A DNA stretch of 18,769 nt from a virus (lineage: Duplodnaviria; Heunggongvirae; Uroviricota; Caudoviricetes), in IMG/VR virus record IMGVR_UViG_3300005613_000034, one strand, 5' to 3'. The translations under genes and the position numbers were made by a program. Every line of letters begins with the position of its first letter. The first letter of the stretch is position 1. Positions 41-8,684 of this stretch are shown here, in pieces. The notes under the pieces were generated by a model, which searched no databases, was not told the origin of the DNA, and was given only the letters and a program-made list of their open reading frames with translations.

Positions 41-262
41 TTGAAAAAAACTATTATACTATTTTTATTAATTATTCTAATTTTATTGAATGTAAATTCA
101 GTGATGCCAGAACATTTAAATGATTTCGATGGGAAAACTCATTTTAATTATATATCAAATCATCCAACCTGTATTGGTTATGCCGGATTTATGTGTATGA
201 CTTTAAAACCTGTAGCGGCGATGGGGAATATGCGTTTTGGTTATTTTTCTTTATTATTATAG
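41..262 (+). CDS. Probable N-terminal part of the downstream membrane protein (signal/TM helix plus loop)
   Basis: TTG start after GGTGG; hydrophobic N-terminus; overlaps 193..996 in the -1 frame. Confidence 0.5.
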   Translation: MKKTIILFLLIILILLNVNSVMPEHLNDFDGKTHFNYISNHPTCIGYAGFMCMTLKPVAAMGNMRFGYFSLLL

Positions 263-3688: not shown

Positions 3689-3931
3689 TCACTTTTTACT
3701 TTTCTTTTTATCAGATTTATAGATATTATCGATTGATTTAAATGCAACATCAGTTAAAATACCCTGAACCATTATTTGCCCAGTACCTAACCCTGCATTC
3801 AAATATGCACCGCTTCCAGGAGTCAATGCCCCGGGCTGCAATAATTGCATATTATGAACGGTTAATGCGCCACCTAAAATCACTTGATTAGCTTCTTTCA
3901 TCTGATCATTTGCTGATTTCTTTTTAGCCAT
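3689..3931 (-). CDS. Hypothetical Gly-rich protein with basic termini (80 aa)
   Basis: Leaderless ATG 30 nt after a TATA box. Confidence 0.75.
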   Translation of the reverse strand: MAKKKSANDQMKEANQVILGGALTVHNMQLLQPGALTPGSGAYLNAGLGTGQIMVQGILTDVAFKSIDNIYKSDKKKSKK

Positions 3932-3966
3932 AAAATATAGTAGAATAAGCTTATTTATAAACTTTT
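3928..3966 (-). promoter_or_regulatory. 39-bp promoter, copy 1 (identical to 6038..6076)
   Basis: AAAAG-TTTATAAA, palindrome AATAAGCTTATT (3944-3955), then ATG. Confidence 0.85.
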
Positions 3967-5882: not shown

Positions 5883-6041
5883 TTATCTCCGCGGTGATCT
5901 TAATTTAGTAGTATATCCAGGTCTTTTAAGAGCATCACCCATTTCTTCAAGATTTTCCAAAACTTCAGGATCTTGAACAACACTACCCATAGCCGGGACA
6001 TTAGGTTTTATGCCTTTTTTAGCAAAATATGTATTATCCAT
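5883..6041 (-). CDS. 52-aa hypothetical protein (not in ORF track)
   Basis: MDNTYFAKKGIKPNVPAMGSVVQDPEVLENLEEMGDALKRPGYTTKLRSPRR; leaderless ATG 30 nt from TATA. Confidence 0.7.
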   Translation of the reverse strand: MDNTYFAKKGIKPNVPAMGSVVQDPEVLENLEEMGDALKRPGYTTKLRSPRR

Positions 6042-6076
6042 AAAATATAGTAGAATAAGCTTATTTATAAACTTTT
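6038..6076 (-). promoter_or_regulatory. 39-bp promoter, copy 2 (identical to 3928..3966)
   Basis: Exact repeat CCATAAAATATAGTAGAATAAGCTTATTTATAAACTTTT (plus strand). Confidence 0.85.
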
Positions 6077-6376: not shown

Positions 6377-6520
6377 TTACATAATTCTACAAACAGTAGT
6401 TCCACATTTAGGGCATTTACCCTTCATCATGTCTCTGCCGTTTTTCATTTTAGTTTTTTTACCGTCTTTCATTTCGACTTTTTTCTTACATTTTACACAA
6501 TATGCTTCTATAGCAATCAC
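6377..6520 (-). CDS. DUF5679-like Zn-ribbon microprotein (not in ORF track)
   Basis: EAYCVKCKKKVEMKDGKKTKMKNGRDMMKGKCPKCGTTVCRIM; GTG start (or ATA at 6511); TATA box at 6545-6552. Confidence 0.8.
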   Translation of the reverse strand: MIAIEAYCVKCKKKVEMKDGKKTKMKNGRDMMKGKCPKCGTTVCRIM

Positions 6521-6542: not shown

Positions 6543-7164
6543 CTATTTATAAGCTTTTTGTTTATTTAAATATTGATAGACCCCAGATTCATCTGCAAAT
6601 TCAGTAGAAAAAACGGAAACAATCTTTGTCTTATTTTCGGGCGAAAGTTGTTCAAAAATCGTGTTTTCATAGAATTTGTGAGTACCGAGGACTATTTTCG
6701 CATCCATATCAGTCAATATTTCGTTGAAATCTTTAAACCACGATTTAATTTGATTCTGCCGGATCCGTTCAAACCGTTGTGATGATTGACCGCCTTGCCG
6801 ATGGTTATTTATGATATATGAATCTTTTTTGAACAAAATATCGAAGCTACCATCATCAAATATGCGAGCATGTGTCATATGACTCAAATCTAATAAGAAA
6901 AGGTTAGTTAAAACCACTCTTTTTTCGATTTTTTTGAGCTGATTTCCACAAAAATATAAAAACCGACCTCCCGAATACGGTTCAGTTTTTAATTCACAAT
7001 CATCCCAAAAATAAGCGTAGCCTGGGCTAAAGACAATTAGAAATTTTATTCAATCCCTGAAGGACGGATGTCCTTGTTTGTTTTGATTTTATGTTGCGCG
7101 CTAACGCTATCTCTTTGTCAATATTGAACATTGACTTACTACTCGGAAAATATAGTGTAATCAT
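6543..7164 (-). CDS. prf1: Minimal aRF1/eRF1-family peptide chain release factor split by a +1 frameshift at CTT-TAG-C (ORF1 7164..7027; ORF2 7028..6543)
   Basis: GAGGTGA RBS plus ATG 7164. ORF1 has ITLYFP and E-x5-NIKS-K-x-TR. The +1 frame has EPY...LYFCGNQL (YxCxxxF-like) and HRQGGQSSQRFER. Confidence 0.88.
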
Positions 7165-7208
7165 TTTACATCACCTCACGTTTTTTGATTAAACTTTTCC
7201 AAAGTTTA

Positions 7209-7280
7209 TACGCCTGGAGAGAATCGAACTCCCAACCACCGGCATATAAGACCGGCACTCTACCATTGAGTTACAAGCGT
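7209..7280 (-). tRNA. trnI: tRNA-Ile(UAU)
   Basis: ACGCTTG/CAGGCGT acceptor; CCGGT-CTTATAT-GCCGG; TTCGATT T-loop. Confidence 0.9.
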
Positions 7281-7283
7281 CTA

Positions 7284-7354
7284 AAGAGGAACCGGGATTC
7301 GCACCCAGATTTAGTCCTTAGAAGGGACTTGTACTTCTATTATACTATTCCTCT
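7284..7354 (-). tRNA. trnR: tRNA-Arg(UCU)
   Basis: AGAGGAA/TTCCTCT; AGTCC-CTTCTAA-GGACT; variant T-loop TGCGAAT. Confidence 0.9.
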
Positions 7355-7370
7355 ATTTTTTAAAAGTTTA

Positions 7371-7441
7371 CGACTTGTGCGGGAATCGAACCCGCGGCTC
7401 CATCGTGACAGGATGGAATGTTACCACTACACCAACAAATC
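7371..7441 (-). tRNA. trnD: tRNA-Asp(GUC)
   Basis: GATTTGT/ACAAGTC; CCATC-CTGTCAC-GATGG; G73. Confidence 0.93.
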
Positions 7442-7443
7442 AG

Positions 7444-7516
7444 CTGCTAGAGCGGGACTTGAACCTGCAACCACTCCCTTAACAGGGGAGCGCTCTACCT
7501 ATTGAGCTATCTAGCA
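7444..7516 (-). tRNA. trnN: tRNA-Asn(GUU)
   Basis: TGCTAGA/TCTAGCA; CTCCC-CTGTTAA-GGGAG; G73. Confidence 0.93.
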
Positions 7517-7521
7517 TTTAA

Positions 7522-7595
7522 GTCAATCAAAAAATCTAGCCGAGACTGAATCTCAATAAAAAAATTGTATCAATACCGGCTAAAAAAAGATTGAC
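7522..7595 (-). ncRNA. Candidate structured RNA or terminator-like element inside the tRNA array
   Basis: Nested inverted repeats GTCAATC/GATTGAC (7522-28/7589-95) and TAGCCG/CGGCTA (7537-42/7577-82) with inner hairpins. Confidence 0.45.
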
Positions 7596-7691
7596 AGCCG
7601 ATACTAATAACTATCCAAATTCAGTATATTTATTCTTGAATTTAAATAGTTATATTTCATAATATAATATAGTAACAAAAAGTATATAAAC

Positions 7692-7748
7692 CTATTGTCC
7701 TTTATGCTTTTCAAAAGCAAATTCAATTACTTCATCTAATTTTGTTAT
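7692..7748 (-). pseudogene. Possible 5' remnant of an HD-domain (SpoT/Mesh1-like) gene
   Basis: AGGTGA RBS, then ATA-initiated ITKLDEVIEFAFEKHKGQ-stop, resembling the A-x-x-F-A-x-x-x-H-x-G-Q start of such hydrolases. Confidence 0.35.
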
Positions 7749-7761
7749 ATTATCACCTAAA

Positions 7762-7835
7762 TATCAAGGCGTGGATTTGAACCACGATCTGAGGCTTATG
7801 AGGCCCCTATCCTAACCAGATTAGAAGACCTTGAT
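7762..7835 (-). tRNA. trnM: tRNA-Met(CAU) (A1-U72; initiator/elongator/Ile2 status unresolved)
   Basis: ATCAAGG/CCTTGAT; GGGGC-CTCATAA-GCCTC; CGTGG-TTCAAAT-CCACG. Confidence 0.85.
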
Positions 7836-7869
7836 GTAATATTTATGATAGAAAAAGTATATAAATATA

Positions 7870-7942
7870 TGCGATATACCGGGCTCGAACCGATACTTTT
7901 TGGTTGGAAACCAAACGTGCTAACCATTAACACTAATATCGC
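7870..7942 (-). tRNA. trnG: tRNA-Gly(UCC)
   Basis: GCGATAT/ATATCGC; TTTGG-TTTCCAA-CCAAA. Confidence 0.93.
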
Positions 7943-7945
7943 ATA

Positions 7946-8019
7946 TGGAGCAGATCAGATTTGAACTGATGATCTTTCGGTCTTCAACCGAATGCTTTAG
8001 CCCGCTAAGCTACTACTCC
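7946..8019 (-). tRNA. trnF: tRNA-Phe(GAA)
   Basis: GGAGTAG/CTGCTCC; TTCGG-TTGAAGA-CCGAA. Confidence 0.93.
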
Positions 8020-8028
8020 TTAATTCAA

Positions 8029-8101
8029 TGAGCCCACGCGGATTCGAACCGCGGATCTTGGGGTTAAAAGCCCCCTATTCTACCAACTGAACTATGGGCC
8101 C
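8029..8101 (-). tRNA. trnK: tRNA-Lys(UUU)
   Basis: GGGCCCA/TGGGCTC; anticodon loop CTTTTAA. Confidence 0.93.
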
Positions 8102-8102
8102 A

Positions 8103-8174
8103 TGGGAAATACAAGAATCGAACTTGTGTCTGAGCGTTCCAAACGCCCGGTGATAACCACTACACCAATTTCCC
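8103..8174 (-). tRNA. trnP: tRNA-Pro(UGG)
   Basis: GGGAAAT/ATTTCCC; GGGCG-TTTGGAA-CGCTC. Confidence 0.93.
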
Positions 8175-8187
8175 ATAATTTTTGGTC

Positions 8188-8208
8188 AAGCTTTTTTGGA
8201 AAAAGCTT
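8188..8208. repeat. Perfect 9-bp inverted repeat between tRNA-Gln and tRNA-Pro
   Basis: AAGCTTTTT-TGG-AAAAAGCTT; function unknown (terminator or processing signal). Confidence 0.6.
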
Positions 8209-8210
8209 AA

Positions 8211-8284
8211 TTGCCCGTGTGAGATTCGAACTCACGATCTCTTGGTCCAAAGCCAAGTGTGTTTGACCCCTACACTAACGGGCT
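8211..8284 (-). tRNA. trnQ: tRNA-Gln(UUG)
   Basis: CTTGG-CTTTGGA-CCAAG; GTGAG-TTCGAAT-CTCAC; A1:A72 mismatch. Confidence 0.92.
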
Positions 8285-8286
8285 TA

Positions 8287-8359
8287 TGAGAATGCTGAGA
8301 ATTGAACTCAATCCTTTGGGATCACAACCCAACGTTCTAACCATTAAACTACACTCTCC
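8287..8359 (-). tRNA. trnH: tRNA-His(GUG), includes encoded G-1
   Basis: GAGAGTG/CATTCTC; TTGGG-TTGTGAT-CCCAA; A73. Confidence 0.92.
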
Positions 8360-8364
8360 ATCTA

Positions 8365-8436
8365 TGGAGCTGAAGGGAGTCGAACCCTTTCTTCATGCTT
8401 GCAAAGCATACGTGCAACCGTTTACACCTCAGCCCC
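8365..8436 (-). tRNA. trnA: tRNA-Ala(UGC)
   Basis: GGGGCTG/CAGCTCC with G3:U70; loop TTTGCAA. Confidence 0.94.
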
Positions 8437-8453
8437 AAATATATTTAGAAAAA

Positions 8454-8525
8454 AGCTGGTGCTCAGATTCGAACTGAGATAGAAAGTTTACAAAACTTTT
8501 ATGTTACCATTAACATCACACCAGC
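8454..8525 (-). tRNA. trnT: tRNA-Thr(UGU)
   Basis: GCTGGTG/CACCAGC; AAAGT-TTTGTAA-ACTTT. Confidence 0.93.
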
Positions 8526-8684
8526 CGTAAATTATTTACGTTGCTGATGCCCGGGCGCGGCCTTTTGAAAAAAAGCATTGAATATTTTGGTCGTACCCAT
8601 GTTAATCATATATAATATATGAACAAAAAAGTATTTAAATGTATCTATTTTTTTGTAAACACATCTAAATACTAAAAAACAAAG

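Follow-up and report, generated by a model that had tools for sequence, protein, structure and literature searches.

The virus record IMGVR_UViG_3300005613_000034 (Caudoviricetes), a stretch of 18,769 nucleotides (nt) which we refer to as the window, carries on its minus strand a gene for a protein of the aRF1/eRF1 type, that is, of the class-I release factors of archaea and eukaryotes. The 206-amino-acid (aa) product is obtained from 7164..6543 once an open reading frame (ORF) of 45 codons, ORF1, and a second of 161 codons, ORF2, are joined by a +1 shift. It is a real, conserved protein of two domains, the stop-codon (N) domain and the GGQ (M) domain, which lacks the GTS loop, helix alpha1 and the C domain. 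Based on its sequence and on structural models, we consider it probable that this gene encodes a virus-borne minimal class-I release factor, which would act in a stop-dependent manner without coupling to aEF1A or ABCE1 and would regulate its own synthesis through the shift. A preliminary description of the same DNA had already proposed a miniaturized aRF1 here. The features of the gene, in the order of translation, are as follows:

7171..7177 (-): Shine-Dalgarno (SD)-like GAGGTGA, 6 nt before the ATG
7030..7164 (-): ORF1, 45 codons, M1-L45 (M-I-T-L-Y-F-P...N-C-L), first strand of the N domain and the NIKS helix hairpin
7111..7113 (-): E18, equivalent of eRF1 Glu55, 6 residues before NIKS
7084..7095 (-): NIKS (N24-S27), a sequence motif aligned to aRF1
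7026..7032 (-): +1 shift heptamer CTT TAG C, read as Leu45, in-frame UAG, then AGC as Ser46 in the new frame
7029..7027 (-): TAG, the in-frame, internal stop of ORF1
6546..7028 (-): ORF2, 161 codons, S46-K206, the remaining N domain (beta sheet) and the whole M domain
6936..6956 (-): YFCGNQL, equivalent of YxCxxxF with the last position changed from F to L
6786..6794 (-): GGQ, the catalytic motif of the M domain
6543..6545 (-): terminal stop TAG, at the end of the M domain, equivalent to about residue 276 of eRF1

ORF1 starts at the equivalent of Met34-Ile35 of human eRF1, just past the position of the GTS loop. Its frame is closed two codons upstream of the ATG and tRNA-Ile(UAU) ends 44 nt upstream; with the SD-like motif lying in between, neither helix alpha1 nor a GTS loop (eRF1 residues 1-33) can be encoded. 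GGAGGTG-like motifs also precede the start in three relatives (L001, L003, and L005). The +1 frame has no stop between 7049 and the TAG at 6545..6543; read-through there would add only six codons, and the gene contains no in-frame UGA. The preliminary description had the product begin at ITLYFP, beyond the GTS motif, and end soon after the M domain as a fusion of about 206 aa, and both ends are borne out by the alignments and by the closed frame upstream. Its reading of the motifs also stands, as the Glu six residues before NIKS is kept (E18), L-A-R is found before NIKS in place of TAS, and YFCGNQL occupies 6956..6936 in place of YxCxxxF.

Homology to cellular factors extends over both parts of the fused protein. 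In a phmmer search against the Protein Data Bank (PDB), residues 1-45 align to residues 34-82 of Halobacterium aRF1 (4af1), including NIKSKQTRT, and residues 114-197 align to the GGQ domain of the same structure. ORF2 scores 27.3 bits on Pfam eRF1_2 against a cut-off of 27.1. The M domain with its GGQ loop is thus present, as is an N domain of eRF1 fold with NIKS, the Glu55 equivalent and YxCxxxF, the last of these with F replaced by L. Across an alignment of nine members (47-84% identity) the invariant elements are M1, I2, E18, N-I-K, YxCGxxL and HRQGGQSSQRFER, while the fourth residue of NIKS is S in two members and D in seven. The residues to which present structures and simulations ascribe the reading of U-purine-purine stops in eRF1 all have kept equivalents, namely Ile35 (I2), Glu55 (E18), Lys63 (within NIK), and Tyr125 and Cys127 (within YxC). 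A match to Pfam acVLRF1 is above the cut-off (29.2 bits), but it spans only 39 residues around GGQ and canonical aRF1 matches the same model.

The predicted fold agrees with these alignments. Structures were predicted for an unsplit homologue, P0012, which is 43% identical to window ORF2 (predicted local distance difference test score, pLDDT, 88.9), and for window ORF2 alone (AlphaFold2, pLDDT 84.9). Residues 1-212 of the P0012 model superpose on human eRF1 34-276 with a Z score of 15.2 over 211 residues; taken separately, its N domain matches eRF1 34-142 (Z 11.7, root-mean-square deviation (rmsd) 2.0, 90 residues) and its M domain matches eRF1 140-274 (Z 11.3). Residues 37-161 of window ORF2, which are residues 82-206 of the fused protein, superpose on eRF1 142-276 with a Z of 14.1 and an rmsd of 2.4. 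The superposition suggested in the preliminary description therefore finds the eRF1 N domain, in the P0012 model, and not an unrelated fold. Other members of the wider superfamily match less completely: the Vms1 structure matches the M domain only (Z 7.4), Pelota structures align only to the M-domain part (P0012 model residues 69/89..213), and Balon structures match at 7-13% identity vs. 22% for eRF1. As a side observation, the arrangement of the N and M domains in the P0012 model (ma0cfda2facb4) is closer to ribosome-bound, accommodated eRF1 (rmsd 5.7-5.9) than to the majority of listed eRF1 chains in free, crystal or eRF3-bound form (rmsd 11-14), which may reflect the predictor only.

Protein and metagenome searches recovered 22 distinct metagenomic genes of this +1-shift mini type; the pattern scan of the metagenomes used the less diverse of the family alignments. 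In 20 relatives the contig includes the start; 19 of these begin M-I-[TS]-[LIV], the other being the divergent L018, which begins M-K-I-S. ORF1 is 45 codons long in 17 of the 19 such relatives measured and 44 in two, and in L018 it is 38. Every complete relative ends about 10 residues (5-26) past DESGV-x-QY, with which the M domain closes. Selection is purifying in both frames, the ratios of non-synonymous to synonymous substitution (dN/dS) being 0-0.25 for ORF1 and 0.05-0.16 for ORF2. In addition, another contig, L019, agrees with the window in ORF2, in the shift site and in the 42 ORF1 codons that it covers. When 1.84 billion representative proteins were searched with a profile, unsplit relatives of 200-221 aa that start and end at the same points were also identified (P0012, P0030, P0041, P0108). 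Full-length aRF1-like proteins match the profile of the mini family only at expectation (E) values of about 1e-10 or weaker, and in an unrooted tree a branch with 98% support (Shimodaira-Hasegawa-like approximate likelihood ratio test, SH-aLRT) parts the mini forms from them. Relatives were also sought in INPHARED phages, IMG/VR viral contigs and GTDB representative genomes and none were found. A search of sequencing runs gave only small shares (≤0.10), probably parts of transfer RNA (tRNA) genes, with no RNA run among those listed.

Some relatives differ in layout. P0038 (293 aa) represents a form of about 290 aa in which the mini-type N terminus is followed by a C-terminal extension of about 80 residues with a weak match to the first 45 positions of eRF1_3, the Pfam model of the C domain; P0031, P0040, and P0042 are relatives of P0038 with the same layout. 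Forms of this type may represent stages through which the C domain was lost. At the other extreme, P0043 (L016:670-1170) is unsplit and only 166 aa long. A true TAA ends it directly behind the long helix downstream of GGQ, so that the latter half of the M domain is missing; the gene that follows is unrelated, and about a dozen representative clusters have the same length. One 8.5-kb contig, L003, carries two paralogous mini genes (L003:2715-3384 and L003:5114-5732), one of the NIKD type and one of the NIKS type, the latter 84% identical to the window protein. Both need a CTT TAG C shift and each lies behind its own tRNA cluster.

The shift itself is a constant property of these genes, as a +1 shift at an in-frame stop is needed in all 22. 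The stop is UAG in 21 and UAA in one; the P-site codon is CTT in 10, ATT in six, GCC in five and TTA in one, and either C or T follows the stop. The sole TAA site lies in L035:463-1087, where it reads GCC TAA T with AAT (Asn) as the next codon. In L018:897-1545, which belongs to a distant subfamily (P0014), CTT TAG C occurs seven codons earlier, after V-L-Q-G-L. This displaced heptamer argues that the site is selected in its own right, and it suggests that the L018 site either moved or arose independently. A further relative, L041:1614-2250, has a CTT TAG T shift and also an in-frame TGA at the invariant Gly of YxCG, for which a point mutation, an error and a read-through codon are all conceivable. 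No SD-like stimulator is conserved upstream of the shift: AAGG lies about 8 nt upstream in some GCC and ATT sites but not in the CTT sites. Transcriptional slippage was rejected, because the GCC TAG T sites have no homopolymer run.

The C domain of cellular factors binds aEF1A/eRF3 and ABCE1. Its absence leaves the viral protein without the surface for binding these partners; the C domain is likewise described as the surface by which aRF1/eRF1 bind partner factors (PMC3467058). The preliminary description had noted the missing domain and had named a separate C-domain gene as a finding that would overturn its proposal; no eRF1_3 was detected in 30 other picked ORFs of the window (52-416 aa). 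It is absent too among the neighbouring genes in the loci of the relatives, and those neighbours vary. A small gene of 47 aa encoding a zinc ribbon with four Cys (DUF5679, E 2e-14) lies at 6377-6520 (-), 22 nt after the release-factor gene. A DUF5679 copy directly follows the gene in L019 and L001 and lies 0.6-0.9 kb downstream in L020-L022. Cellular aRF1 has a zinc ribbon inside its C domain, as seen in P0069, and a link between this and the DUF5679 neighbour may be coincidental.

The genomic setting ties the gene to tRNAs. The window has a G+C content of about 31% and 14 tRNA genes, most of them in an array next to the gene:

7209..8526 (-): 13 co-oriented tRNA genes, the array ending 44 nt upstream of the release-factor gene

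The release-factor gene is probably the last member of the transcription unit of this array. The arrangement recurs, with a tRNA gene on the same strand within 100 nt upstream in 15 of the 20 distinct loci with enough upstream sequence, at 450-810 nt in two and none in three. The tRNAs also bear on the host. In bacteria, tRNA-Tyr carries G1:C72 together with a long variable arm and tRNA-Gly carries U73, whereas C1:G72 and A73 are archaeal/eukaryal identity features. The tRNA-Tyr of L001 and L005 is 73 nt long with C1:G72, which is the class I type of archaea and eukaryotes, and A73 is found in the tRNA-Gly of both the window and L005. A prokaryotic host is in keeping with the SD motifs and with the dense packing of the genes, some of whose stop and start codons overlap. 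Taking tRNA identity, SD motifs and gene overlap together, the virus probably infects archaea. Several of the viral tRNAs (window 8287-8358 (-) and 8211-8284 (-); L006:558-631) are odd in other ways, and include a tRNA-Gln with an A1/A72 mismatch, a tRNA-Met with A1:U72 and a tRNA-Ile with a UAU anticodon. The tRNA-His of the window (in the region of 8287-8358 or 8211-8284 (-)) has A73, and the L006 copy (L006:558-631) has C73 with T at position -1.

How such a factor might work can be outlined from its sequence and from known systems. A ribosome paused at the UAG after codon 45 would slip by +1 on CUU UAG C and so complete the full protein, which would couple synthesis to how well the internal stop is read, following the logic of RF2/prfB and Mimivirus R726. 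Because a slip at the pause is required, output should rise when termination there is slow and fall when it is efficient. Without a C domain there would be neither delivery by aEF1A-GTP nor hand-over to ABCE1, and the mini factor would enter the A site of the host (most likely archaeal) ribosome unaided, as bacterial RF1/RF2 do. There, U-purine-purine stops would be read by the equivalents of Ile35, Glu55, NIK, Tyr125 and Cys127, and the peptide released by GGQ. Together with the virus's own tRNA set, the mini factor would then form a translation-supply module. It is a reasonable inference from the missing C domain that the factor works independently of a GTPase, and a human eRF1 fragment without the C domain, studied by Frolova and colleagues in 2000, reportedly keeps release activity in vitro.

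Several points weigh against a minimal release factor. Loss of helix alpha1 and of the GTS loop, together with the change from F to L in YxCxxxF, could alter or weaken decoding, and without the C domain release may be slow and the recycling of ribosomes would be left without an explanation. The predicted N-domain fold of the window protein leans on an unsplit homologue of 43% identity and on sequence alignment. Finally, the search for a C domain was confined to read-through of the terminal stop, the next gene, the 30 picked ORFs of the window and the neighbours of the relatives.

Alternative roles for the protein have to be set against this. It could serve in ribosome rescue or counter-defence rather than in ordinary termination, freeing ribosomes stalled by a host attack on tRNAs or rRNA in concert with the viral tRNAs and RNA-repair enzymes, by analogy with bacterial PrfH and RtcB. 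The position of the gene at the end of tRNA arrays in most loci would suit such a role, as would the RNA-repair genes found nearby, namely an RNA ligase in the window, RtcB in L001 and Ro60/TROVE in L013, and the spread of reduced release-factor homologues in conflicts of this kind has been argued for (Burroughs and Aravind, 2019, PMC6514570). However, every known stop-reading residue is conserved here, whereas in rescue factors such as Pelota, ArfB, and Vms1 the stop-reading domain is gone or has been replaced, and the structural match is to the N domain of eRF1 and not to that of Pelota. The RNA-repair neighbours are not conserved across loci, and a frameshift sensor built on a stop codon best fits a factor that acts at stop codons. 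Since the stop-reading motifs are retained, we regard rescue as less likely than release and, overall, as unlikely. It is also conceivable that the protein modulates termination, either by failing to recruit ABCE1 and so leaving ribosomes on the mRNA to re-initiate on polycistronic genes, or by out-competing host aRF1 in the course of host takeover. In favor of this, the C domain is missing across the whole clade and the genes of the virus are closely spaced, stop codons overlapping with start codons, but the proposal is purely inferential, and the fully conserved context of GGQ speaks against a catalytically dead blocker; we consider it very doubtful.

A more trivial explanation is that the gene is broken, misassembled or translated as two separate polypeptides, and for the relatives looked up gene callers do return no more than the downstream portion, of 113-164 aa, or an isolated ORF of 45 aa. 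This is extremely improbable given that 22 distinct genes from many samples require the +1 shift, that L019 repeats the shift site and ORF2, and that selection is purifying in both frames. The skipped base and the stop are also conserved though the P-site codon varies, and the GCC TAG T sites have no homopolymer run suited to transcriptional slippage. Two polypeptides are unlikely, as the first start codon in ORF2 comes only 37 codons past the junction. A pseudogene or sequencing error was accordingly rejected on the basis of conservation and dN/dS.

The preliminary description went further in proposing an altered, perhaps UAG-biased, specificity. In favor of this, UAG is the stop at the shift in 21 of 22 genes, across four P-site codons and two positions in the protein; on the other side are the UAA of L035, the mixed terminal stops and the retention of all main decoding residues. 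A bias toward UAG is therefore weakly indicated at most. According to Lind et al. (2017, PMC5681627), the GTS loop contributes nothing notable to decoding beyond hydrogen bonding with a third-position G, so its loss would, if anything, weaken the reading of UAG and predicts no preference for it. It may be that UAG followed by a pyrimidine is simply the weakest stop for the host factor. The same description had pointed out that both stops of the gene are UAG, the minority stop in the window, and as a count this is accurate (TAA 19, TGA 7, and TAG 5, the release-factor gene included). The terminal UAG, however, appears coincidental and was rejected as a meaningful feature since the terminal stops of the 19 complete relatives are mixed (TAA 12, TAG 4, and TGA 3). 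A more specific version would have a self-sufficient, GTPase-independent terminator tuned to UAG (and UAA), by which viral proteins could be ended correctly where termination at UAG by the host is weak or ambiguous, for example in pyrrolysine-decoding archaea, with its own UAG shift as a sensor of the deficit. We think this quite improbable; if true, an archaeal-type release factor would be operating in a bacterial-like mode without a class-II partner.

Returning to the minimal release factor, its closest parallels among viruses are Mimivirus R726 and Megavirus mg280. These are also virus-encoded factors of the aRF1/eRF1 type with a +1 shift at an in-frame stop, the CUU UAG C of the window is identical to that of Mimivirus, and NIKS, YxCxxxF and GGQ have been retained (Jeudy et al., 2012, PMC3521657). 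The giant-virus factors, however, keep three domains, although a large deletion within the C domain has been noted (Jeudy et al., 2012, PMC3521657), and they need UGA read-through in addition and infect eukaryotes, whereas the window gene has no read-through codon. The window gene thus shares with R726 the virus-encoded +1 shift but not the three domains or the UGA read-through: its product is half the size, lacks the C domain, GTS loop and helix alpha1, and is encoded behind a tRNA array by a virus whose host is prokaryotic and probably archaeal. Cellular aRF1 (4af1, 3agk) and eRF1 (1dt9, 3jag, 5lzu) share with it the N and M folds, the decoding residues and GGQ, but at about 410-440 aa vs. 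206 aa they also have helix alpha1, the GTS loop and a C domain that in many cases contains a zinc ribbon.

Among the aeRF-1 superfamily's reduced members, baeRF-1 proteins offer a likeness in that one family consists of N and M domains without the C (Pelota-like) domain (Burroughs and Aravind, 2019, PMC6514570). The baeRF-1 and Balon (8rd8, 8v9j) proteins differ in being bacterial, mostly without the catalytic Gln and linked to hibernation factors. The window protein does not belong with them, as the best baeRF match of ORF2 is to baeRF_family10 at 11.6 bits against a cut-off of 27.1; a cellular aRF1 (P0069) itself scores 32.7 bits on that model, so the similarity is at the level of the clan. 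VLRF1/Vms1 have no stop-codon domain and a longer catalytic loop with an N-terminal extension of their own, and Pelota/Dom34 have an Sm-like N domain and no GGQ. The window protein, with both a stop-codon domain and GGQ, falls into neither group.

For the shift, the best-known counterpart is bacterial RF2 (prfB), in which an early in-frame stop follows CUU (CUU UGA C) and a +1 slip is required for the full product. This frameshift is also discussed alongside the giant-virus genes (PMC3521657). Compared with the window gene, prfB encodes an unrelated fold, uses UGA and not UAG, and has an upstream SD-like stimulator which is not conserved here, where other P-site codons (GCC, ATT, and TTA) are also in use. 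PrfH-RtcB is a further analogy, as a trimmed release-factor homologue without the GTPase-interacting part is found there on mobile DNA near RNA ligases (PMC6514570), but PrfH has the bacterial RF fold and linkage to RtcB occurs here in one locus (L001) only. The parts of the proposed system are thus known singly: the viral eRF1 +1 shift in Mimivirus, the N and M domains alone in a baeRF-1 family, and GTPase-independent release in bacteria. Searching the literature for mini aRF1 genes in archaeal viruses returned no description.

Termination in archaea and eukaryotes is thought to need delivery of the class-I factor by a GTPase and hand-over to ABCE1, both via the C domain. A widespread half-size factor with decoding and catalysis only would offer a direct test of which parts of aRF1/eRF1 are needed on the ribosome, and could be used as a minimal scaffold when stop-codon reading is studied structurally or engineered. 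Viruses of archaea would also join bacteria and giant viruses as settings in which release factors regulate themselves by frameshifting. In addition, the gene marks a so far undescribed group of viruses with near-complete tRNA sets.

Other genes nearby in the window include the RNA ligase (PF09414, 11587-12519), methyl- and glycosyltransferases and an HNH endonuclease. In the relatives, RtcB lies about 1.6 kb upstream in L001, Ro60/TROVE is the adjoining gene in L013, and an integrase is also found. A scan for sigma-70 promoters around the release-factor gene gave matches at chance level. Elsewhere in the window, the 20-nt sequence AGCTTATTCTACTATATTTT occurs at 3932-3951 and 6042-6061 (-), directly upstream of the ATG of the small genes 3689-3931 and 5883-6041, and AGCTTATTCTACTATATTTT may be a shared promoter or leader.
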